DNA from: Candidatus Cloacimonadota bacterium
GTDB taxonomy: Bacteria > Cloacimonadota > Cloacimonadia > Cloacimonadales > TCS61
Assembly (NCBI GenBank): GCA_030445745.1
Contig: JASUTE010000001.1
Coordinates: 7,664 to 71,663, forward strand
Direction: 5' to 3'
Length of the DNA stretch: 64,000 bases
Part shown: positions 27,595-52,068 of the stretch, one piece after another
Position numbering within the stretch: position 1 is the stretch's first letter
Layout of the letters: the number at the start of each line of letters is the position of its first letter
The notes under the pieces: model-generated
Seen by the model: the letters and a program-made list of their open reading frames with translations, nothing else
What the model was told of the DNA's origin: nothing
Database searches by the model: none
Position numbers and translations under genes: made by a program

Positions 27595-28650
27595 TCATCC
27601 TTTCTTGGTAAATTTATTTTTTAAAAGACGGTAAATGGAGGGTATAAGCACCAGTGTAAATAAACCGGTGAACACTATAGTAAACCAACTTACCCCTTCA
27701 TGTAAACTGATTTGTTTAGTTATTGCTGGAATTGCTTCCAAACTGAAAATATAATTTAGTAGGAAGCCGCCTAAAACGGCAAACACCGAAACTACTCCTA
27801 AATAGATAGCTACGAACTTTTTGCCCATAGTTTTTGCTATTAAAGTTATGGTGGCGGCATTGGTAGCGGGGCCAACTACCAGAAACACAAAAGCAGCTCC
27901 AGGGGAAATACCTTTTAGCATCAATGAAACAGCTATGGGAATAGAAGATGTGGCGCAAACATACATCGGTAATCCTACCACTATCATTAGTAACATACCC
28001 AAAAATCCATCTCCACCATATTTTAGGAAGAAATTATCGGGAATAAAAAAAGCTATAAAGCCTGCGATAATTATTCCCAATATCAAATGTCCAGCAATAT
28101 CATCTAAAAATTCTACATAAGCATAGTTCAAAGCATTGTAGGTCTTTTTCCAAATATTTGGCTTTGTCTCTGGGGTAATTTGGCAAGATTCACAATCGCA
28201 GGAAGTAGCTTCTGGATCGTCTTCTGTTTGTTGCTCAATTTGTTCATCTGGCGCTGTGTGATTGATAAATATTCCGCCAAAAATACCTGTAACAAAAGCA
28301 GCGATGGGACGGAAAATGGCAAACACAGGACCCATAAGGCCGTATGTTGCAACTACACTGTCTATTCCTGTTTGTGGGGTAGAGATAAGAAACGAGATGG
28401 TAGCACCAGGTGAAGCTTTCTGTTTGCGTAAATACAAAGTGGTGGGAATTACTCCACAAGAACAAAGAGGTAGAGGAACTCCCAGAAGGGCGGCTTTGAT
28501 TACAGAAAGGGTATTATTGCTTCCAAGATGTTTGGCAACCAGCTCACGTGTAAATACAAGATGCATGAATCCGGCAAAAAATAAACCTATAAAAAGATAT
28601 GGTGCCATTTGAATATAAGTTGTGAAGATTGCATTCCACAGTGAATCCAT
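27595..28650 (-). CDS. Permease of the DUF318 / SO_0444-like Cu/Zn efflux family
   Basis: The 351-aa polytopic protein has the 'PLPLCSCGVIP' motif and a cytoplasmic 'CDCESC' loop. It lies between copA and copZ. Confidence 0.65.
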   Translation of the reverse strand: MDSLWNAIFTTYIQMAPYLFIGLFFAGFMHLVFTRELVAKHLGSNNTLSVIKAALLGVPLPLCSCGVIPTTLYLRKQKASPGATISFLISTPQTGIDSVVATYGLMGPVFAIFRPIAAFVTGIFGGIFINHTAPDEQIEQQTEDDPEATSCDCESCQITPETKPNIWKKTYNALNYAYVEFLDDIAGHLILGIIIAGFIAFFIPDNFFLKYGGDGFLGMLLMIVVGLPMYVCATSSIPIAVSLMLKGISPGAAFVFLVVGPATNAATITLIAKTMGKKFVAIYLGVVSVFAVLGGFLLNYIFSLEAIPAITKQISLHEGVSWFTIVFTGLFTLVLIPSIYRLLKNKFTKKG

Positions 28651-31584: not shown

Positions 31585-31961
31585 CTATTGATGTATATGA
31601 ATATCTTGCTATGGAAATGGTATAGAGATATTTTCTTGGCTAAAACGTTTTTTTATTTTTCCATGAAGCTCGAAAGGTAATGTCCAGTAGTCATTGGTTT
31701 TCACCCAGAGGCGAACCACAAAATTTATATTGCTATCAGCCAATTCGGTAACTCCCACAGTTGGTTTAGGGTTTTTAATATGCGTTCATCTTCTTGCAAT
31801 ATTTGCCACAAGGTTTTCTTCACCTTATCCAGATCGTCGGAATAACTAACTCCCACCACCATATTCAGCCGGCGGGTTTCGTTAGCGGTAAAATTGGTAA
31901 TATTGTCGTTGATAAGTTTGGAATTTGGCACTATTATTTTGCGGTTATCAGGTATTTTCAC
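31585..31961 (-). pseudogene. Mechanosensitive channel (MscS family) remnant: C-terminal part only, frameshifted, with internal stop
   Basis: The 78-aa frame reads 'IIVPNSKLINDNITNFTANETRRLNMVVGVSYSDDLDKVKKTLWQILQEDERILK'. A second frame continues with 'NPKPTVGVTELADSNINFVVRLWVKTNDYWTLPFELHGKIKKRFSQENISIPFP*QDIHIHQ', with a TAG at 31609-31611. No TM region lies upstream. Confidence 0.75.
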
Positions 31962-32169
31962 TCACTGCAAGTCTTTACTAAGCCACCAAGCCCACTTTAA
32001 ATTTAAAATAAATTTCTAAGTTTAGAGATTTCTTGTAAAATTCCAAAATTTTCTCCACCTCCGGCGCTGTGCTCATCTTTTCCTAAAACCGGGGCTGTTT
32101 GGGACACGTTCATATTGAAACAAACAGTTAGGAGGAGGGGGGAGGATGATAAGGGGTCTGGGTAGAGAG

Positions 32170-32661
32170 TTAAAAGATATTCTCATTTTTAAGTGAAAAA
32201 TATCTATGGGTTTGCTTAAAATTTTTGATAAGCTGATAACAGGTAACAGAATCAAATGAAGTATCTTTTAAATATTTATTATCTCGTACTAAATTTTGAA
32301 AAGCTTCATTTGCATTTGATCCAGAAGAAAAACCTATCACTTGACAATTTTCAATATCAGGTTCGATTGAAATAGAATAAGGTTGATATGTAAAGCCTTC
32401 AGTGGAAATAAAAATAAATTCTTTTATTTCATCATTTAATTTGGTATTGTTTTTATTAATAATTTCTGAAACAAAATTATAAGCATCATCTTCTATTATT
32501 TCAATTACTTCATCAAAAGGTATTGAGTATTTTGTCATTTCTTGTTCGATTTTTTCATTAATATCTATTTTTAGAGTTTTAATATCATTTCCCCATACCA
32601 AAACAATTTTTTCCCTTTTTCTGCATTGGAAGAAATTATTGACAGACATTAAACTATTCAT
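32170..32661 (-). CDS. Hypothetical acidic 163-aa protein (no recognisable domain), partner of the PLD nuclease gene
   Basis: The ORF is uninterrupted, lies 34 nt downstream of and co-oriented with 32696-33502, and is D/E/N/I-rich. No motifs are recognised. Confidence 0.5.
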   Translation of the reverse strand: MNSLMSVNNFFQCRKREKIVLVWGNDIKTLKIDINEKIEQEMTKYSIPFDEVIEIIEDDAYNFVSEIINKNNTKLNDEIKEFIFISTEGFTYQPYSISIEPDIENCQVIGFSSGSNANEAFQNLVRDNKYLKDTSFDSVTCYQLIKNFKQTHRYFSLKNENIF

Positions 32662-32695
32662 TATCCTCCATCCTAACTATTTATATATTCATTTT

Positions 32696-33502
32696 TTAAC
32701 TATTATGTATAAACCACAGTTTTCGATAAACTCCATTACCTAAAAATTCTAGTAATCCTAGATCTCTTAATTTTTGAAGTTGTTGCCTAATTTTATCTAA
32801 AATGTGATGATTATTTGGATAAATGGTTTTCAAATGATTTTCATATTTGTTAATATCTTGAAGACTAAAGATGTTTTTGGGAATTTGCTCAAGACATTTA
32901 AAAATTTCTAACTTCCAACCTCTCAATGTTGATGAAATAAGTTCATCCGGTAAATCAATGATATCAAAATTATCTTCAGGGTTATCTATGTTTATTCTTG
33001 GTATTCTGATTTTTTTTATTTTGGGCATTTTTGATAATAATTGACGTACTTCAGCAATATTTTTTTCGCTAATTACTCCGATATTTTCATTGTTAAATAA
33101 GGTTTCAAAATCATTTTTAACTATCCCAACAGTTTTAATGTTATCAAAATATATGCCATATTCGAAATTATTTAATAGACCACCATTTGTTAAATTTGAA
33201 GAAGATATGATTGCTTTTTTATCATCAAAAATAAATATTTTAGAGTGTATTCTAGATAGGTTTCTTACATTCCCATTTGATTTTAATATTTTTTCTAAAC
33301 CTCCAATATCTAATGATCCCGAATATATATTCATTAATTTAAAAGAAGTTATTAAGTCCAATCTTACATTTTTCTTTTTTATATTCAAGATATCATCACA
33401 TATATTTTCTTTTACAAATGGGGAAGTGATCTTAATTGTCTTTTCCGTTTGTTGTACTAAATTGAGAAATTCTTTTTTCCAGGGAGTTTTAATAACTTTC
33501 AT
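32696..33502 (-). CDS. PLD-superfamily (single HKD) nuclease-like protein with C-terminal winged-helix/HTH-like tail
   Basis: The HKD signature is 'H86-S-K-IFIF-D-DKKAII-SSSN' (HxKx4Dx6[GS]SxN), present once. The C-terminal 'YPNNHHILDKIRQQLQKLRDLGLLEFLGNGVYRKL' resembles DNA-binding tails of restriction-type nucleases (from memory). Confidence 0.65.
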   Translation of the reverse strand: MKVIKTPWKKEFLNLVQQTEKTIKITSPFVKENICDDILNIKKKNVRLDLITSFKLMNIYSGSLDIGGLEKILKSNGNVRNLSRIHSKIFIFDDKKAIISSSNLTNGGLLNNFEYGIYFDNIKTVGIVKNDFETLFNNENIGVISEKNIAEVRQLLSKMPKIKKIRIPRINIDNPEDNFDIIDLPDELISSTLRGWKLEIFKCLEQIPKNIFSLQDINKYENHLKTIYPNNHHILDKIRQQLQKLRDLGLLEFLGNGVYRKLWFIHNS

Positions 33503-33597: not shown

Positions 33598-33622
33598 AAA
33601 GGGAGCACCTCACGATGCTCCC
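33598..33622 (-). terminator. Rho-independent terminator of the carboxyltransferase operon
   Basis: The stem GGGAGCA/TGCTCCC has an 8-nt loop. On the minus strand it is followed by TTTGTGTTTAT, 28 nt after the stop at 33650. Confidence 0.7.
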
Positions 33623-33649
33623 TTCTCTTTTCTATATTTTCTCTTTTAT

Positions 33650-44712: not shown

Positions 44713-47700
44713 ATGAGAAAGGGAATCCTTATTTTATTAGTTTCCTTACTACTTGTGAGTATAGCTTGGGCTGCTCCAGAAAAAACAAGAGAGCCCGGCC
44801 ACACACCTATACCTCAAGAGCGTTTAGATGCACAAGCAAATGGGCTCACGTTCCAAGTTAGAGGTGATAGAGCACAAGATATAACAATTGAACTTACAGT
44901 GGACACTTGGTATGGTGAAGCTTCTTGGAACCTTTATAGCTATGTAGAAGGTGCATACTATTATGCCGAAAACCAAGAGTTTACTACTGGAGGAGAAACT
45001 GTAACAGAAATTTTATCCTTAGATGAAGGCGATTACTCAGTTGATTGCTTTGACACTTATGGAGATGGTGGTATAGCAGGAACAGTTTACGATGCAGAAG
45101 ATAATGTATTGGTAAGCTGGGCAGATGATGCTTATTATGACTTTGGTGAATTTCCATTTACCGTAGCTCCACCACCATTCGAATTTGTTGAAAATTTCGA
45201 TGCTGGGATACCAGCTGAATGGGAAGTAACAGGCGATCCTTCTTGGGTTGGTATGACCGAATATGGTTATGGCGCTAGCACCTTAGATGGAACTCCGTTT
45301 GCAATGATCGACAGTGATGATGCTGGTTCTGGAACTCATGTAGTAGGAGATCTTATTTCTCCTGCTATGGATGTAACAGGTTACGACAGCATGATGTTGG
45401 AATTTGAACAATATTATAACAATATCTCTGCTGATGAAGTGGTAAACGTTCAAGTATGGGATGGAACCGCTTGGCAAGTTGTAGCTGAATTCACAGAAGA
45501 TATGGGTGCTTGGGGCGCTCCAGATAACCAGGTTATCGATGTAACCGCTTATGCGAACACTGACTTTAAGGTTAAATTTCACTATGATGATGGTGATGCT
45601 TGGGCTTGGTACTGGGCTGTAGATAATGTAAAGGTTTACAACCCTATAGCTGGTACCTTAGAAGGTTATGTTTATGCTTATGGCACAACTAACCCCATTG
45701 AAGGTGCTACAGTAACTTGTGGTGAAGTTTCAGCTACCACGGATGCCACCGGCTTCTATACTTTAGAACCTAATGCTGGCAGCTATGAAGCTGTTGCTGA
45801 TGCTGAAAATTATTTCCCAGCTACTGAAGCTGTAGAAATTGTGACAAATGAAGTAACAACTCAGGACTTTGAACTTACCTGGGCCGAAATTGCTGTAGAT
45901 CCAGCAGAAGTGAATGTGGAAGTTCCCGGTGGACTTACCGAAGAAGCCACATTAACTATTTCTAACCCGGGTGGAACTGCGCCTCTTACATACAATGCTG
46001 GCTTTTTTGGAATATCGAAAAGAACTATAACCTTGAAAGAAACAAAAGAGAGAGGTGAAAACTACTCTGGTTTCTCTAAAACAGAACAGATTACTGTTCC
46101 CGATAACCGTGGTACCGGCTGGTATTCCTATTCTCCTATTGATGACATGACCAGTCTTACCTGGGCAGCTCCTGAAAGAGCTACCTTCTTCCAGATGGCT
46201 GATTTTGGCATTCCTTATCCAGTAGAAATTACTAACCTTAGTCACTGGTTCTATGAACATTCTAGTTATCCTTGGGATAATGACCAGTTCAAATTCAAGA
46301 TTTATGCTGCAGACGGCACAACCCTGCTTTATGAATCTGATAACTTGACAGCTGAACATTTGGTTGAATACAATTATACCCTTGAAGAACCATTAGTAGT
46401 AGAAGATGATTTCTGGGTAGCAATTGCTCCTATATCTGCAAGTGGATTTCCTTCTAGTACAGGAACCAATTTGTATGATGGCCATTCCTATGTTTGGAAT
46501 CCAGGTACTAATGAATGGGAATTATACGCAGGTCTCGAATACACTACAGCTGTTGGTTTAAGCCAATGGTTGACAATAAGCAATGCCACAGGTACCATAG
46601 AACCAGGTGCTAGTGCAGAAATTACCCTGAATTTAGATGCTGCAGGATTGGAAAATGTAACCAAAACAGGTGAAGTATTTATCCAGAACGATGCTTTATA
46701 TCCGATGGATAAAGGTGAAGACTTCATAGTTCCTGTAACTATGGAAGTTGGAGCTGCTGTTCCTATCTTTGAATTTGACTATACTACTACCGACTTTGGT
46801 TCAATTCCTATTGGAGCCACCGAAGGCCCTGAAACTTATGGAATTCAAAATGTTGGTAGTGGAACTTTCGTAGTAGAAGAACTTACCATTACAGGTGACA
46901 ATCAAGATGAGTTTATTCTAGATGATTCTCATGAATATCCTCTGGAAATTGCACCTGGTGAAAGAATAAATGTAGATGTTTCATTTGCTCCTAATTCTAT
47001 AGGAGACAAACAGGCATATCTTTTCGTTGTGAACGACATTGGCAGAGAAGTAGAAGTACTTGAATTCACTGGTAACGCTTATGTTCCCGATCTACCTGGT
47101 GCTCCTAGTAATCCAACACCTCAAAATGGTCTAGGTGATGTTTCAGTGGAAACAGGCCTTAGCTGGGAAAATGGACCGGAAACAGTATCTATAGACTTAT
47201 ATTTTGACACTGTTAATCCACCACAAAATAAGGTGTTAGATAATGTTACAGCAGTAGAAAACTACGATCCGGGTACACTTGATTTTGAAACAACTTACTA
47301 TTGGAAAGTTGTAGCTAGAAATATAACCGGTGAAACTCAAGGCGCAACTTGGTTCTTCATGACTAGTGACCCTGGTACTGGCCCCATGACATTCCTGGAA
47401 GAAAACTTCGATACAGGTATTCCAGCTGAATGGGAAATAACAGGTGATGTAGCTCCTTGGCATGGTGCAACCGATTATAGTGGTAATACTTTAGATGGCA
47501 CTCCTTTTGCTTTTGTAGATAGTGATGCAGCTGGTTCTGGTGGAGTACATGTAAATAGTGACCTTATCACTCCTCCACTCGATACTACAGCTGGGCTTAC
47601 CGTAAAGCTTGAATTTGATCAGTATTACAATTATATCAGTACAAGTGAAGTAGTTAATGTTCAGGTTTGGGATGGAAGCGAATGGCAGATAATTCTGGAT

Positions 47701-50700
47701 CTCACAGAAGATATGGGTGATTGGGGAGCTCCTGATCATCAAGAAATTGATATCAGCGATTACTCTAACCAAGAACTGAAAGTGAAATTCCATTATGATG
47801 ATGGCACATCTTGGGCTTGGTATTGGGCAGTTGATAATGTAAAAGTTAACTCCGGTGCACAAATACCTGTATTTACAATTACACCAGCTGAACACGATTT
47901 CGGCTCTATTCCAGTTTATACCTGGGAAACCCAAGAATTTGTGATTACAAATACTGGTGTTAATGATCTTATAGTTCAGGATTTGTCTGTAACAGGACCT
48001 GATGCTGAGCATTTTGAGTTAACCGATAATAATGAATATCCAGTAACTATTTCACCTGAGGATGCCGGTATTACAGTTGAAGTAAAATATGCACCAATGA
48101 CTGCAGGCGAACATTCTGCTTTCTTAGGTGTATATACCGGTGAAGATGCTGAAAATCAACACGTTATCGATATTGCTGGTAGCGCCTACATGCTTCCAGA
48201 TGGTGATATCGCAGGAAATCCATTCCTAGTAGAATTCACCGATGGCTTCTATACAGATAATAGTACCAATGACGGCTTTGAAGATAACTATGATCTACCA
48301 AGTAGCGATGGAGCTGATATTGTTTACCAATTCACATTAGAAGAAGATACATATATGGATTCAATATCACTCTATGGTTCCGATTTCGACACTAAAATGG
48401 CTGTTTATGCTGATGGTGTAGTACCTGGCCCCGACAATTATCTGTATTATAATGATGACAGAGCAATACAATCTGCTCTGTATGATATTCCACTGTTTGC
48501 TGGAACCTATAACGTTGTAGTTGATGGTTACGGTGGAGCAGTAGGAAATGTAGTATTCTCGATCGATATTGGTGATCCATTGCCAGCTCCTGTTGCAGCA
48601 ACCAATCCAAGCCCGGAAAATGGTGCTGTAGAAGTACCTGCTGATGGTACTATTCTCACCTGGGAAATTGGCGAATTCACCAAGTATGTAGATGTTTACT
48701 TTGGAACTACTTATCCCCCAGAATTAGTACTGGAAAATGGTGATAGAATTACTGAGTATGATCCAGGAACACTTGAACCGAATCAGATCTATTTCTGGAA
48801 AATAGTTAGCAAGAATACCTCTGGATCAGCTGAAAGTGAACTATGGGGATTCACCTCTACTTTAACACCTCCAACCGGACTTGCTGCCGAAGTTATAGAC
48901 TACGTTGATGTAGAATTAACTTGGGAAGGTCCCACCGGCGGCGGTGGCGGCGGCGGTGGCGGCGGAGGCTCCGGTGATGAATTCACCGAAGACTTCGAAG
49001 CTGGCCTACCTAGTGACTGGACAATAATTGATGCTGACGGTGATTCCTATAATTGGGAATGGTCCAATACCTTTACCGCTCATAGTGGTGTAGGTGTTAT
49101 GTACAGTGCTTCCTATCTTAATAATGTAGGTGTTCTTACTCCAGATAACTATCTGATTACTCCACAAGTAGAAATTGGAGATAACTCAGAATTTAGTTTC
49201 TGGTATGTAGCACAAGACCCAAATTGGCCTGGTGATAGGGCATATATCAAGGTATCTACTACCGATACAAATCCTGCTTCTTTCACAGAAGAACTTGGAT
49301 ATGTAGAAGCTGGTCCTACCTATACACAAGCTACATTCGATATGAGCGATTTCTCTGGTGAAACAGTTTATATTGCTCTGGAACATACCGATTGCTCAGA
49401 TTTCTTCTATATCAATGTAGATGATGTAGCCCTTACTAATGCTTCTAAAGTTAATAATACTGATGTAGCATATAACACACAGGTAAGCAATGTTGATCCA
49501 CTGAAAGATGTACGTTTGAGCGAAGCTGAATTTGAAGCTAAGCTGGAAGCTTACACAGCAAGCCGCGATCGTGCTTTCATTGGTTACAATGTATATCGCG
49601 ATGGCGAAATAATTGCTGAAAATGTTGCTGAAACATCTTACTATGATGAAGCAGTTGCTGTTGGTACTCATACCTATGAAGTAAGCGCTGTATATCATGA
49701 AGGTGAATCTGCACCTAGTGAACCGGTAGAAGCTCTTATTCCTGGTATTGGAATGATCTACGGTACTGTTACCGATGAACATAGTGGTGCTACTATAAAC
49801 GCAGCAGAGATTACAGCTGTTAATGTAGATGATGAAGAAATAGTTTATACTGCTACCAGCAATCTCCAGGGTAATTATGAAATACCAGAAGTACTGGAAG
49901 GTACCTACACAATTACCTGCGAAAAAGATGGATATCCTGATGAAGTAGAAACAGATATCTATGTTGGTCACGAAGATGAAGTTGAAGTAAACTTTACACC
50001 TAATAACTTTGGTCTACCGCCAACATTAACAGCAGAATCTGGTGTAGATGAAGCGGTTCCACTACATGTAAGCCCATGGGGTGGTACTGAAGAATATACC
50101 CAGGCCTTCCACGATGGTGGATTTGAAAGTCAACTTGGTTGCGGTGGCGGATGTGCTCTGGGTGTACGCTTTACACCTGCAGGCTATCCCGCAGAACTTA
50201 CACACATACAAGTTACCTTCCAGGGTGATGCTAACTGTACTGCTGGTATATTCAGTGTATACCTTGATCCTGAAGGTGCAGTTGCAGGGCCTCCATCAGC
50301 TCCAACAGCACCTGGTGATCCTTCTGCTGTTTGGGAATCTGCACCTGGTTCTTATCCACCTGGTGTTTATGACCTCGATATTACCGATGTTACTATCGAA
50401 AGCGGTGACGTTTATGTAATGTTCTGGGAAAATAGCAGTGGCTTTGCCGGTGTTGCAAACGACTTACAGCAGAATCACATTGATCGTAACTGGGGCTATA
50501 TAAGTTCTACCTGGACTACTATCTACGCAGCTGTAGGTGGAGATCCTACACTTACCGGTAACTTTGGTATGACTGCTACTTTCGTAGGTGCACCTGGTCA
50601 AGCAGTTGTGTATGAACAATCAACAGGTAATGGCGATAATTCTTATAGCCAAGGCTTGAACTTAGCTGTACAAGAAGGTAAAGATATTTCCGATCGGATA

Positions 50701-52068
50701 AGACCAACTATAGCTGGTAATGTGGGTATAGTACCTGCAAACTTTGGCGATAGAATCGATGTAAATATTGTTACTGAAGAAGCTGACTATCGCGAAGTAA
50801 CCGGTTATGAAATCTGGAGATCACTTGATGGTGAAGACTTCGGTACGGCACCATATCATGTGATCGAAGGTAGTGGTCCTCAAGATTGGACAGACGAAGA
50901 CGTAGTTAACGATACTCAGTATTGGTACTATGCAAATGTTATTGAAGATGGCACAACTCCAGGAGACCCTTCCGAAATAGTTACTGCTACTCCTCATGAC
51001 GGTGTTGCACCAGGACCAATTGAAGATTTCAACTACGTTGTTGATGTTCCTAACAAAACTGTAGACTTCTCTTGGGTAGATCCTTCCTTAAATGAAGATG
51101 GAACCCTTTGTGAAGACTTAGTTGGAATAGAAATCTATCGTGATGGTAACCTTCTGATTACCATAGATCCTTGGGTAGGCTCCTTCCAGGATGTAGTTCC
51201 TGAAAATGCAGATTACACCTATGAATTCTATGCAATAGATGAAGTTCCTAACATGAGCGAACCTGTTGTGCGTACAATCTATGTAGATTACATCCTCTTC
51301 ATGGAAGACTGGAGTAATCCAATGGATTGGACTTTAGCAGGTGCATATCAGAATAACTGGATAATTCCTTCAGAAACAAATAGCGCCGGTGGAGAAGCAC
51401 CTGAAGCAGAATTTGACTGGCTGCCAGATTATGGCTCAGTAGATACTGCTTATCTGGTATCTCCAACCTTCAGCACCGCTGGTATGACCAATATGACAGG
51501 TCAGTTCAGACAATATCTTGACTGGTATTCTAACACAGTAACACTTGGTGTAGCTACTTCCAGTGATGGTGGTTCAACTTGGAATGATGCTTGGAGTCAA
51601 ATTTACAGTGCAGATTCTGGCCCAGAAACAATTAACTTCGAAATTGATACACCAGATGTTGGTTCTAACAACTTCCAGATGTGCTGGTACATAGAAAGTG
51701 ATCCTTGGGATATTATGAGTTGGTACATCGACGACCTTCGCGTTTCCTATGAAGGTGGAGGAGATTCCAACGATAATAACGACATTCCACTGGTTACTAA
51801 GCTGAGTGGCAACTATCCTAATCCATTCAACCCAGAAACAACAATTAACTTCTCTACCAAAGAAGATGGAAATGTTAGAATTGATATCTATAACATCAAG
51901 GGTCAGAAAGTTAAGACTCTGGTTAATGAGCATATGAAGGCTGATAACCACAAAGTTGTTTGGACTGGTGAAGATAGTAATGGAAGACAAGTATCTAGCG
52001 GTGTTTACTTCTATAAGATGAAAGCCGGTAAATACACTTCCACTAAGAAGATGATACTTATGAAATAA
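44713..52068 (+). CDS. Giant (2451-aa) secreted multidomain surface protein with C-terminal T9SS sorting domain
   Basis: An AAGGAG RBS and a signal peptide are present. The body has repeated MAM/choice-of-anchor-J-like modules, ASH/choice-of-anchor-D-like Ig modules, FN3-like and PPC-like domains, and CarboxypepD_reg-like segments. The last ~85 aa ('GNYPNPFNPETTINF...IDIYNIKGQKV...SGVYFYKM') form a T9SS/FlgD-Ig-type CTD. Confidence 0.9.
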   Translation: MRKGILILLVSLLLVSIAWAAPEKTREPGHTPIPQERLDAQANGLTFQVRGDRAQDITIELTVDTWYGEASWNLYSYVEGAYYYAENQEFTTGGETVTEILSLDEGDYSVDCFDTYGDGGIAGTVYDAEDNVLVSWADDAYYDFGEFPFTVAPPPFEFVENFDAGIPAEWEVTGDPSWVGMTEYGYGASTLDGTPFAMIDSDDAGSGTHVVGDLISPAMDVTGYDSMMLEFEQYYNNISADEVVNVQVWDGTAWQVVAEFTEDMGAWGAPDNQVIDVTAYANTDFKVKFHYDDGDAWAWYWAVDNVKVYNPIAGTLEGYVYAYGTTNPIEGATVTCGEVSATTDATGFYTLEPNAGSYEAVADAENYFPATEAVEIVTNEVTTQDFELTWAEIAVDPAEVNVEVPGGLTEEATLTISNPGGTAPLTYNAGFFGISKRTITLKETKERGENYSGFSKTEQITVPDNRGTGWYSYSPIDDMTSLTWAAPERATFFQMADFGIPYPVEITNLSHWFYEHSSYPWDNDQFKFKIYAADGTTLLYESDNLTAEHLVEYNYTLEEPLVVEDDFWVAIAPISASGFPSSTGTNLYDGHSYVWNPGTNEWELYAGLEYTTAVGLSQWLTISNATGTIEPGASAEITLNLDAAGLENVTKTGEVFIQNDALYPMDKGEDFIVPVTMEVGAAVPIFEFDYTTTDFGSIPIGATEGPETYGIQNVGSGTFVVEELTITGDNQDEFILDDSHEYPLEIAPGERINVDVSFAPNSIGDKQAYLFVVNDIGREVEVLEFTGNAYVPDLPGAPSNPTPQNGLGDVSVETGLSWENGPETVSIDLYFDTVNPPQNKVLDNVTAVENYDPGTLDFETTYYWKVVARNITGETQGATWFFMTSDPGTGPMTFLEENFDTGIPAEWEITGDVAPWHGATDYSGNTLDGTPFAFVDSDAAGSGGVHVNSDLITPPLDTTAGLTVKLEFDQYYNYISTSEVVNVQVWDGSEWQIILDLTEDMGDWGAPDHQEIDISDYSNQELKVKFHYDDGTSWAWYWAVDNVKVNSGAQIPVFTITPAEHDFGSIPVYTWETQEFVITNTGVNDLIVQDLSVTGPDAEHFELTDNNEYPVTISPEDAGITVEVKYAPMTAGEHSAFLGVYTGEDAENQHVIDIAGSAYMLPDGDIAGNPFLVEFTDGFYTDNSTNDGFEDNYDLPSSDGADIVYQFTLEEDTYMDSISLYGSDFDTKMAVYADGVVPGPDNYLYYNDDRAIQSALYDIPLFAGTYNVVVDGYGGAVGNVVFSIDIGDPLPAPVAATNPSPENGAVEVPADGTILTWEIGEFTKYVDVYFGTTYPPELVLENGDRITEYDPGTLEPNQIYFWKIVSKNTSGSAESELWGFTSTLTPPTGLAAEVIDYVDVELTWEGPTGGGGGGGGGGGSGDEFTEDFEAGLPSDWTIIDADGDSYNWEWSNTFTAHSGVGVMYSASYLNNVGVLTPDNYLITPQVEIGDNSEFSFWYVAQDPNWPGDRAYIKVSTTDTNPASFTEELGYVEAGPTYTQATFDMSDFSGETVYIALEHTDCSDFFYINVDDVALTNASKVNNTDVAYNTQVSNVDPLKDVRLSEAEFEAKLEAYTASRDRAFIGYNVYRDGEIIAENVAETSYYDEAVAVGTHTYEVSAVYHEGESAPSEPVEALIPGIGMIYGTVTDEHSGATINAAEITAVNVDDEEIVYTATSNLQGNYEIPEVLEGTYTITCEKDGYPDEVETDIYVGHEDEVEVNFTPNNFGLPPTLTAESGVDEAVPLHVSPWGGTEEYTQAFHDGGFESQLGCGGGCALGVRFTPAGYPAELTHIQVTFQGDANCTAGIFSVYLDPEGAVAGPPSAPTAPGDPSAVWESAPGSYPPGVYDLDITDVTIESGDVYVMFWENSSGFAGVANDLQQNHIDRNWGYISSTWTTIYAAVGGDPTLTGNFGMTATFVGAPGQAVVYEQSTGNGDNSYSQGLNLAVQEGKDISDRIRPTIAGNVGIVPANFGDRIDVNIVTEEADYREVTGYEIWRSLDGEDFGTAPYHVIEGSGPQDWTDEDVVNDTQYWYYANVIEDGTTPGDPSEIVTATPHDGVAPGPIEDFNYVVDVPNKTVDFSWVDPSLNEDGTLCEDLVGIEIYRDGNLLITIDPWVGSFQDVVPENADYTYEFYAIDEVPNMSEPVVRTIYVDYILFMEDWSNPMDWTLAGAYQNNWIIPSETNSAGGEAPEAEFDWLPDYGSVDTAYLVSPTFSTAGMTNMTGQFRQYLDWYSNTVTLGVATSSDGGSTWNDAWSQIYSADSGPETINFEIDTPDVGSNNFQMCWYIESDPWDIMSWYIDDLRVSYEGGGDSNDNNDIPLVTKLSGNYPNPFNPETTINFSTKEDGNVRIDIYNIKGQKVKTLVNEHMKADNHKVVWTGEDSNGRQVSSGVYFYKMKAGKYTSTKKMILMK
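45190..45639 (+). repeat. Intragenic duplicated 450-nt module, copy 1
   Basis: It encodes 'ENFDAGIPAEWEV...TLDGTPFAMIDSDDAGSG...VVNVQVWDGTAWQ...FKVKFHYDDGDAWAWYWAVDNVKVY'. It aligns codon-for-codon with 47401-47850. Confidence 0.85.
47401..47850 (+). repeat. Intragenic duplicated 450-nt module, copy 2
   Basis: It encodes 'ENFDTGIPAEWEI...TLDGTPFAFVDSDAAGSG...VVNVQVWDGSEWQ...LKVKFHYDDGTSWAWYWAVDNVKVN'. Confidence 0.85.
48937..48969 (+). repeat. GGY trinucleotide tract encoding Gly11 linker
   Basis: The tract ggc ggc ggt ggc ggc ggc ggt ggc ggc gga ggc is in frame within the giant gene. Confidence 0.9.

Follow-up and report, generated by a model that had tools for sequence, protein, structure and literature searches.

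A PLD-winged-helix nuclease and its acidic PF27350 neighbour form a probable modification-dependent restriction cassette in a Cloacimonadota bacterium

Introduction

The DpnI cassette of Streptococcus pneumoniae (dpnC + dpnD) encodes a Gm6ATC-reading nuclease with a winged-helix (wH) domain followed by a small acidic open reading frame (ORF), dpnD, whose product was still of unknown function in 2015 (PMC4471560). Enzymes that join a phospholipase D (PLD) domain to a wH domain of the DpnI type were described by Helbrecht et al. in 2024 (Front Microbiol, PMC11037411), who reported 27 predicted PLD-wH fusions and cloned Aba4572I and CbaI. Expressed alone in Escherichia coli, the PLD-wH enzymes were toxic or not expressible and none was over-expressed; the toxicity of CbaI was Dam+-dependent. 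The authors regarded the enzymes as acting alone (stand-alone), with no mention of DpnD or of small neighbouring genes (PMC11037411). Here we describe a cassette of two genes, one for a PLD-wH protein and one for an acidic protein of 163 amino acids (aa), in 64,000 nucleotides (nt) of DNA of a Candidatus Cloacimonadota bacterium (contig JASUTE010000001.1, positions 7,664 to 71,663), called the window below and numbered from its first letter.

The PLD-wH protein is well supported as a new member of the class of modification-dependent (type IV) enzymes described in 2024. It is likened to Aba4572I and CbaI by their described architecture, an N-terminal PLD domain with a single HKD motif and a C-terminal DpnI-type wH domain in about 265 aa, and like them it has no methyltransferase beside it. 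Unlike the Chloroflexi-type PLD-wH proteins, to which it is about 28-40% identical, it lies in a large and mostly Bacteroidota clade. The cassette as a whole represents a new version of the DpnI/DpnD arrangement. It shares with it the succession of a wH nuclease and a small acidic ORF and differs in the catalytic domain (PLD versus PD-(D/E)XK), in the family of the partner (PF27350 versus PF14207, with no detectable homology between them), in an extra N-terminal domain of the partner and in the spacing of the genes, which are 34 nt apart here whereas dpnD overlaps dpnC by 4 nt in Streptococcus locus L031. We consider the cassette to be probably a modification-dependent (type IV or IIM-like) restriction module of the PLD-wH class with an accessory moderator. 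A modification-dependent, type-IV-like restriction module was one of the alternatives offered by an earlier reading of this DNA, hereafter the original prediction, and is the best supported of them.

The PLD-wH Nuclease

The two ORFs and the gap between them lie exactly where the original prediction had placed them (Table 1). It had also proposed a single complete HKD signature and a DNA-binding wH tail, and both are borne out. The signature reads H86-S-K88-IFIF-D93-DKKAII-S100-S101-S102-N103, and an alignment of 21 homologues shows no variation at H86, K88, D93, S101 and N103. The tail matches DpnI_C ('Dam-replacing helix-turn-helix (HTH) domain') with 96 bits against a cut-off of 23 and gives an ungapped match of about 50% identity to the solved structures of DpnI (4esj/4kyw; E 6.9e-17), the sole solved relative of the protein by sequence. 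DpnI residues E228, K229, R231, Q232 and Q235 lie within 5 Å of the methyl groups of two N6-methyladenines (m6A) (Siwek et al. 2012, PMC3424567). When the three-residue numbering offset of the PDB chain is allowed for, they align with D236, K237, R239, Q240 and Q243; four positions are identical, the fifth is an E to D change, and the pocket residues are retained. K237, R239, Q240 and Q243 are invariant in the PLD-wH family in the same 21-homologue alignment.

PADLOC and Foldseek, two checks that the original prediction had proposed, lead to the same assignment. The carboxyl terminus matches mREase_II, the PADLOC model of methyl-directed type II restriction endonucleases (E 2.8e-23), and the PLD region gives sub-threshold matches of the DrmC type. 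In Foldseek the AlphaFold 2 (AF2) model of the protein (mean predicted local distance difference test, pLDDT, 87.7) retrieves NucT (6ehi), the PLD domain of the type IV enzyme SauUSI (7clg), Zucchini (4ggj), Nuc (1byr) and BfiI (2c1l) with its N-terminal domain, and DpnI (4kyw and 4esj) with its C-terminal domain; the matches to Nuc and NucT have E values of about 1e-8 and template modelling (TM) scores of about 0.7-0.77. As modelled, the N-terminal domain has the fold of nuclease-type PLD enzymes. This agrees with the original prediction of a PLD-family nuclease and not of a lipid enzyme, a candidate rejected on the presence of one HKD motif only and on the NCBIfam score to cardiolipin synthase (14.5 bits versus a cut-off of 787). 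The defence system DISARM was also rejected: the NCBIfam DrmC score is 34 bits versus a cut-off of 133, DrmC has no such wH tail, and no DrmA, DrmB, DrmE or methyltransferase gene is found in the locus.

With Nuc, NucT, BfiI and the PLD domain of SauUSI the protein shares the fold and the presence of one HKD motif per chain, which by analogy suggests a dimeric, metal-independent active site. The DNA reader differs between them: it is a DpnI-type wH domain here, a B3-like domain in BfiI and a helicase with an SRA-like domain in SauUSI, while Nuc has none.

We predict with high confidence that the enzyme is an m6A-dependent restriction nuclease, because it combines the PLDc_2 and DpnI_C domains, the PADLOC restriction endonuclease match, the conserved pocket and the nuclease fold, because the toxicity of CbaI is Dam-dependent, and because the window holds no credible amino-methyltransferase motif. 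Judging from the pocket residues, the wH domain would read fully N6-adenine-methylated ApT, most likely in Gm6ATC (Dam) sites. Two chains would pair their single HKD motifs into one metal-independent PLD site, as in Nuc and BfiI, and cut near the site that is read. The host would be expected to lack Dam methylation, so that Dam-methylated DNA of phages or plasmids would be destroyed and host DNA spared. The observed/expected ratio of GATC is 0.81, similar to that of other palindromes, and is uninformative as a proxy of Dam status. More tentatively, we propose that the 163-aa protein would bind the basic nuclease (isoelectric point, pI, 9.4), probably at its DNA-binding face, tempering or gating its activity.

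The original prediction called the cassette an orphan, but the PLD-wH architecture is neither an orphan nor undescribed. More than 529 homologue clusters share the two domains of the PLD-wH protein; their members measure about 264 aa and show 51-61% identity to the query, and the family is far larger than the 27 published fusions. Clusters whose source is named come mainly from Bacteroidota and Ignavibacteriae. More distant full-length members are found in Chloroflexota, Nitrospinota, Deferribacteres, Clostridia and an ANME-2 archaeon; Chloroflexota and Anaerolineales homologues were recovered with the query (L011, L015, L020).

The Acidic Partner Protein

The second protein of the cassette had been described as acidic and unplaceable. 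It is indeed acidic (pI 4.8), but it can be placed: an identical protein (P0001) carries the precomputed Pfam label PF27350 (AF_1447), and the partner is called PF27350:AF_1447 on six metagenome contigs. The label is taken from this precomputed annotation, and the local Pfam copy used for scans does not contain the PF27350 model. The start of the gene differs between annotations, that of NCBI beginning at M5 (159 aa) and that of JGI giving 163 aa.

The conserved part of the protein is its C-terminal half. An exhaustive HMMER search yields 230 representatives, nearly all aligning to residues about 80-160 alone, which are mostly stand-alone proteins of about 75-100 aa in a family of mostly 66-95 aa. 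A profile built from 44 members matches 338 clusters, all labelled PF27350, and finds the query at 1.9e-30. The N-terminal 79 residues are common only to P0002 (66% identity) and to the 74-aa stand-alone protein P0272, and other long members of the family have unrelated N-terminal extensions. AF2 models the PF27350 domain with a pLDDT above 90 as a long β-hairpin and helices followed by two further strands, and the N-terminal part with a pLDDT of about 70. Acidity is a family trait, with a median pI of 4.6 (n=227).

Foldseek gives no significant match for the fold of the partner in the PDB or among the viral structures of BFVD, and no relative is found in PHROGs, PADLOC, NCBIfam or the local Pfam scan. 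A Pfam scan of 64 members of PF27350 produced merely scattered weak matches to PilN, POTRA and STN, and ten longer members have no Pfam domain in their extra part. A HicB-like antitoxin, which the consensus had brought to mind, finds no support in the scan of these 64 members. The N-terminal half as a second PF27350 repeat was negative by hhalign. Homology to DpnD/PcfM (PF14207) was rejected as well, the hhalign comparison of PF27350 with the DpnD alignment giving a probability of 0.3% and that of the N-terminal half 1.3%, with no Pfam hit. An origin of the family in phages or plasmids, or its use in anti-restriction, was rejected since tblastn found no match in phage and plasmid collections, IMG/VR had none and no PHROG corresponds to it. 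Literature searches on AF_1447 and DpnD found nothing on function.

An acidic protein paired with a basic nuclease recalls the colicin DNase-Im, barnase-barstar and NucA-NuiA couples and the acidic DNA mimics Ocr and ArdA, an analogy that is functional only. The partner has no sequence or fold similarity to any of these proteins and, unlike them, its type is non-essential in relatives of the cassette.

Conservation of the Pairing

The pairing was followed from both sides. On the nuclease side the sample consisted of 80 genome loci encoding a protein with a DpnI_C-type wH domain; 23 are full-length PLD-wH genes and the remainder mostly DpnI-like genes of about 255 aa. The hidden Markov model of the PF27350 domain matches 14 of the 80 loci, always on the strand of the nuclease gene, and in all 14 the match begins no more than 24 nt before or 19 nt after the point where the nuclease match ends. 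Seven of these genes follow a PLD-wH gene (in Chitinophagaceae, Flavobacterium piscinae, Runella, Chloroflexia, Deferribacteres, Ca. Zipacnadia and an uncultured bacterium) and seven a DpnI-like gene. The junctions that were checked overlap the nuclease stop codon by 1-10 nt, mostly by 4 or 10 (e.g. AAATTATGGAAATGA), except for L011 with a 12-nt gap. The window cassette differs from most of these relatives by its 34-nt spacer with a GGAGG sequence.

On the partner side, 80 metagenome loci were collected by the PF27350 profile alone, of which 31 could be evaluated (at least 800 nt on both sides). A PLD-wH gene is adjacent in three of the 31, another wH nuclease gene in seven, and a gene for a restriction-type protein of about 256 aa in 12. 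The latter protein has a weak N-terminal match to HARE-HTH (Pfam E 0.003, 18.5 bits versus a cut-off of 25.9), its C-terminal region matches the PADLOC model REase_II at 4.7e-7, and a DVxW...FEVE.S motif was read by eye. This family is the commonest neighbour of PF27350 in the metagenome sample (L087-L151; e.g. L090 908-1675, L106 4255-5025) and, by its sequence, may be an uncharacterised modification-reading nuclease. PF27350 sits either just upstream or just downstream of these HARE-HTH-like genes.

In total 22 of the 31 evaluable loci place PF27350 next to a wH nuclease or a HARE-HTH-like restriction-type nuclease, with variable gene order and conserved coupling. The original prediction had taken a partner family occurring mostly without PLD neighbours as a point against the pairing. 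Such is the case for PLD-wH genes in the strict sense, but not for modification-reading nucleases as a whole, and the link is therefore with reader-nuclease fusions in general. The association of PF27350 with these fusions is genuine and ancient, not PLD-specific, and appears to be previously unreported. Several of the remaining nine loci are near other nuclease-like genes: a divergently oriented HNH gene is 180 nt from PF27350 in four loci, possibly representing a single event, and an unclassified protein of 326-328 aa with a PD-(D/E)XK-like motif read by eye is also found near PF27350.

Two loci of this sample have an unusual organization. Two copies of PF27350 flank one HARE-HTH-like nuclease gene in L098 (143-1395). 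L145 (1133-6404) encodes a PF27350 protein of 166 aa with a different N-terminal extension within a co-directional array of small acidic or Cys-rich ORFans, none of which gives a significant Pfam hit and near which there is no nuclease gene; the region could be part of a mobile element.

Other Small Families and a Sister Lineage

Among the 80 wH loci the position beside the nuclease gene is also held by unrelated small acidic proteins. DpnD/PcfM (PF14207) is found in 13 loci, including the Streptococcus DpnI locus and the PLD-wH locus L007, and two of the 13 genes are upstream of the nuclease; it also follows PLD-wH in L169. An acidic Zn-ribbon family of about 90 aa (CxxC...CxxC) is found in eight loci with alphaproteobacterial DpnI-like genes, downstream in L025, L029, L047, L068, L070 and L075 and upstream in L030. 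A family of 77-86 aa occurs in two loci. A protein with an LPD28 domain (PF18843, 1.8e-13), whose other known occurrences are in polyvalent proteins encoded by phages and conjugative elements, follows PLD-wH in one locus (L019 6832-7131, from an Ignavibacteriaceae metagenome-assembled genome). These four other small families have pI values of 4.4-5.3. In a tree of the wH domain the partner families are intermingled, and close relatives differ in theirs (L032 and L053 versus L061; L036 versus L048; L002 versus L003).

The same exchange is seen at short evolutionary distance. A sister lineage of Cloacimonadota (L001/L167) shares the left junction beyond the decarboxylase gene and encodes there a PLD-wH protein 94% identical to that of the window. 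The DNA identity is 89.5% across about 4.8 kb and ends at the PLD-wH stop codon, beyond which an unrelated basic ORF of 111 aa is found (L167 5182-5517 (+); L001 6814-6949), with no Pfam match, and then a different right-hand context with encapsulin and polA.

This exact break supports the view that the 163-aa gene is unrelated cargo and the 3' flank of the nuclease genes a recombination hot spot for small genes, as do the PF27350 genes with no nuclease gene nearby (L145, L150, L096). Adjacency far above chance speaks against this view, with 14 of 14 matches at the stop codon on the same strand, a nuclease neighbour in 22 of 31 loci of an independent sample and overlapping start and stop codons; we regard cargo as an unlikely explanation.

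The sister lineage also bears on the idea that the partner is a positive factor, an assembly, stability or activation subunit needed for folding, dimerisation or DNA engagement of PLD-wH. Tight translational coupling implies co-production of the two proteins, a chain with a single HKD motif must dimerise, and PLD-wH cloned alone gave no detectable protein in E. coli (PMC11037411). Against these points, the sister lineage and several relatives keep an intact and conserved PLD-wH without PF27350, PF27350 is also the companion of monomeric DpnI-like enzymes and of a nuclease with another fold, and unrelated families are interchangeable at its position. A positive role is improbable in our view.

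Methyltransferases in the Window and in Relatives

The window was scanned for the amino-methyltransferase motif (D/N/S)PP(Y/F/W) in ORFs of at least 60 codons. The sole occurrence, SPPY in a 104-codon frame at 27806-28117 (+) that runs antisense within the gene of an ArsP-type permease (27595-28650(-)), is attributed to chance. The 64-kb window likewise contains no relative of the PF05869 methyltransferase discussed below, and within it the nuclease gene is stand-alone, with no cognate methyltransferase in its neighbourhood.

Relatives present a different picture, which raises the alternative that PLD-wH is the nuclease of a conventional methylation-sensitive restriction-modification system whose methyltransferase is elsewhere in the genome or lost. 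About a quarter of PLD-wH genome loci, among them most of those from Bacteroidota, have an amino-methyltransferase gene within one gene. This alternative is very improbable against the scan of the window, the DpnI methyl pockets retained by the wH domain, the Dam-dependent toxicity of CbaI (PMC11037411) and the truncation of the true Dam-class gene beside the PLD-wH gene of L169. The order in L169/L170 (2157-4476) is a Dam/DpnM-class frame of 111 codons, Dam-like over its first ~75 residues only, then PLD-wH, DpnD/PcfM (109 aa) and a DpnA-like N6_N4 methyltransferase. The arrangement resembles a DpnII-type GATC restriction-modification locus of which one part has given way to a DpnI-type cassette, a dam-replacing pattern that gives an independent hint consistent with GATC-methyl specificity. 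The DpnA-like methyltransferase of L169 is also found near PLD-wH in L009, and a related DPPY methyltransferase in L003.

In Bacteroidota, every short-form PF27350 gene (66-69 aa) is followed by a convergent gene for a highly conserved 159-aa methyltransferase of the PF05869 'Dam' family (WFGRVYLNPPYG, NPPY), whether the upstream nuclease is PLD-wH or DpnI-like (L002, L004, L006, L032, L036, L053, L064, L074 and L172-L175; e.g. L004 6996-7508, -). At long-form PF27350 loci a DPPY-motif ORF is nearby in 3/80 and the PF05869 159-aa methyltransferase in 0/80. Where an adenine methyltransferase adjoins a nuclease that reads m6A, the two could be in genetic conflict. The trio shows that a stand-alone type IV enzyme is not the whole story for the family and leaves room for a three-part logic; on the improbable safety-catch reading given below, PF27350, the PF05869 methyltransferase and the methyl-dependent nuclease could even form a self-methylating suicide switch.

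Role of the Partner

We tentatively favour, as one possible role of the partner, that of an accessory regulatory or immunity subunit rather than a specificity subunit; an inhibitor or immunity factor was among the suggestions of the original prediction. This role is favoured because of the acidic charge of the protein, its coupling to the nuclease, the way other acidic proteins can stand in for it, and the finding that PLD-wH alone is toxic or fails to be expressed, which the missing moderator would explain.

A number of observations weigh against the proposed module with its moderator. For the enzyme, Aba4572I is toxic in Dam- cells too and no PLD-wH protein has yet been shown to cleave DNA in vitro (PMC11037411), and the adenine methyltransferase often adjoining in close relatives complicates the simple picture of a stand-alone type IV nuclease. 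For the partner, there is no relative by fold in PDB or BFVD, nor by the Pfam, PHROG or PADLOC comparisons, and fusions are not informative. The four small families that were modelled are all absent from about half of the wH nuclease loci, L171 has no downstream partner at all and the sister lineage has exchanged its own, so the partner cannot be strictly required. DpnI, for its part, is active without DpnD. The interspersion of partner families on the wH tree argues against a tightly co-evolved interface. PF27350 accompanies at least two well-supported catalytic folds (PLD and PD-(D/E)XK-type), and this, together with its dispensability, makes a strict antitoxin or an active-site inhibitor unlikely.

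A toxin-antitoxin or abortive infection system is a related alternative, in which the nuclease would be a general toxin, the wH domain merely a DNA tether and the partner a labile acidic antitoxin from which the toxin is freed on host shut-off. The toxicity of Aba4572I in Dam- cells fits such a toxin, and a small acidic protein with a basic nuclease, encoded by coupled genes of variable order, resembles type II pairs. We nevertheless hold this system to be unlikely, as Pfam, NCBIfam and PADLOC place neither protein in any known family of toxins or antitoxins, on which ground membership of type II was rejected, as the antitoxin-like gene is dispensable in close relatives, and as the strict conservation of the m6A-pocket residues argues that methyl reading matters.

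The idea of a moderator can be extended to single-chain reader-nuclease fusions at large, which would generally come with a coupled small acidic safety catch restraining the nuclease, or an adjacent methyltransferase, until infection. At least four unrelated families would fill this position interchangeably (DpnD/PcfM, AF_1447/PF27350, the Zn-ribbon proteins and the 77-86-aa proteins), with LPD28 found once. We give this generalization a small chance of being correct.

Genomic Context of the Cassette

The features of the cassette and of its borders are collected in Table 1. The packing of its two genes resembles that of a co-transcribed pair. As the original prediction had stated, no methyltransferase, ATPase or integrase gene adjoins the cassette. 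The upstream neighbour codes for the alpha subunit of an oxaloacetate/methylmalonyl-CoA decarboxylase, and downstream are found, in order, an mscS remnant, csoR, a SHOCT gene and copA, a neighbourhood of metabolic and copper-resistance genes. The GC content is 27.8% in 32001-33000 versus about 39-48% in the flanks. This low GC content and the truncated mscS at one end give the cassette the appearance of a horizontal acquisition, as had been proposed. The mscS remnant directly downstream keeps only the end of the β-domain and the C-terminal domain and is probably the right-edge scar of the insertion or deletion that brought the cassette. The terminator-like hairpin beyond the decarboxylase gene would mark the left edge of a transcription unit of the cassette's own; no convincing match to a sigma-70 promoter is found for it. 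The identical cassette is indexed in the same context in 40 blocks of public metagenome assemblies, 23 contigs of which were read. Away from the cassette, the window contains an ORF of 2451 aa at 44713-52068 (+).

Table 1. Coordinates in the window of the cassette, its domains and its borders.
Feature	Position	Strand	Basis or remark
PLD-wH gene, 268 aa + stop	32696..33502	(-)	ORF; predicted m6A-dependent type IV restriction nuclease
PLD/HKD nuclease domain, residues 14-135	33098..33463	(-)	Pfam PLDc_2, E 1.7e-14
Single HKD motif H86..N103, HxKx4Dx6SSxN	33194..33247	(-)	Translation; Pfam PLDc active-site motif, residues 85-107
DpnI-type winged-helix domain, residues 194-261	32720..32923	(-)	Pfam DpnI_C (PF17726), E 1.5e-27
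Recognition helix D236-K-I-R-Q-Q-L-Q243	32774..32797	(-)	Alignment to DpnI m6A-pocket residues
Intergenic spacer, 34 nt, with GGAGG ribosome-binding site	32662..32695	(-)	Precedes partner ATG at 32661
Acidic partner gene, 163 aa	32170..32661	(-)	ORF
Lineage-specific N-terminal extension of partner, residues 1-79	32425..32661	(-)	Homologue comparison
PF27350 domain of partner, residues 80-163, conserved part	32173..32424	(-)	Homologue matches
Terminator-like hairpin 3' of upstream decarboxylase gene	33598..33625	(-)	
mscS remnant, 5'-truncated and frameshifted	31609..31961	(-)	Pfam MS_channel_3rd, E 4.9e-22, joined frames

Significance for the PLD-wH and PF27350 Families

The nuclease enlarges by one a class that received its name in 2024 and whose biochemistry has still to be proven. 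More useful is the finding on the partner: the presence of PF27350 at the position of DpnD beside several reader-nuclease architectures is a testable lead on what the DpnD-like proteins do. It suggests co-expression of the neighbouring gene as a remedy for the failed expression of PLD-wH enzymes; if this works, it would open the way to characterising a new nuclease, metal-independent and Gm6ATC-dependent, that might be a useful reagent. A safety catch shared by the reader-nuclease fusions, if true, would explain both the 40-year-old puzzle of DpnD and the failure to express PLD-wH proteins alone.

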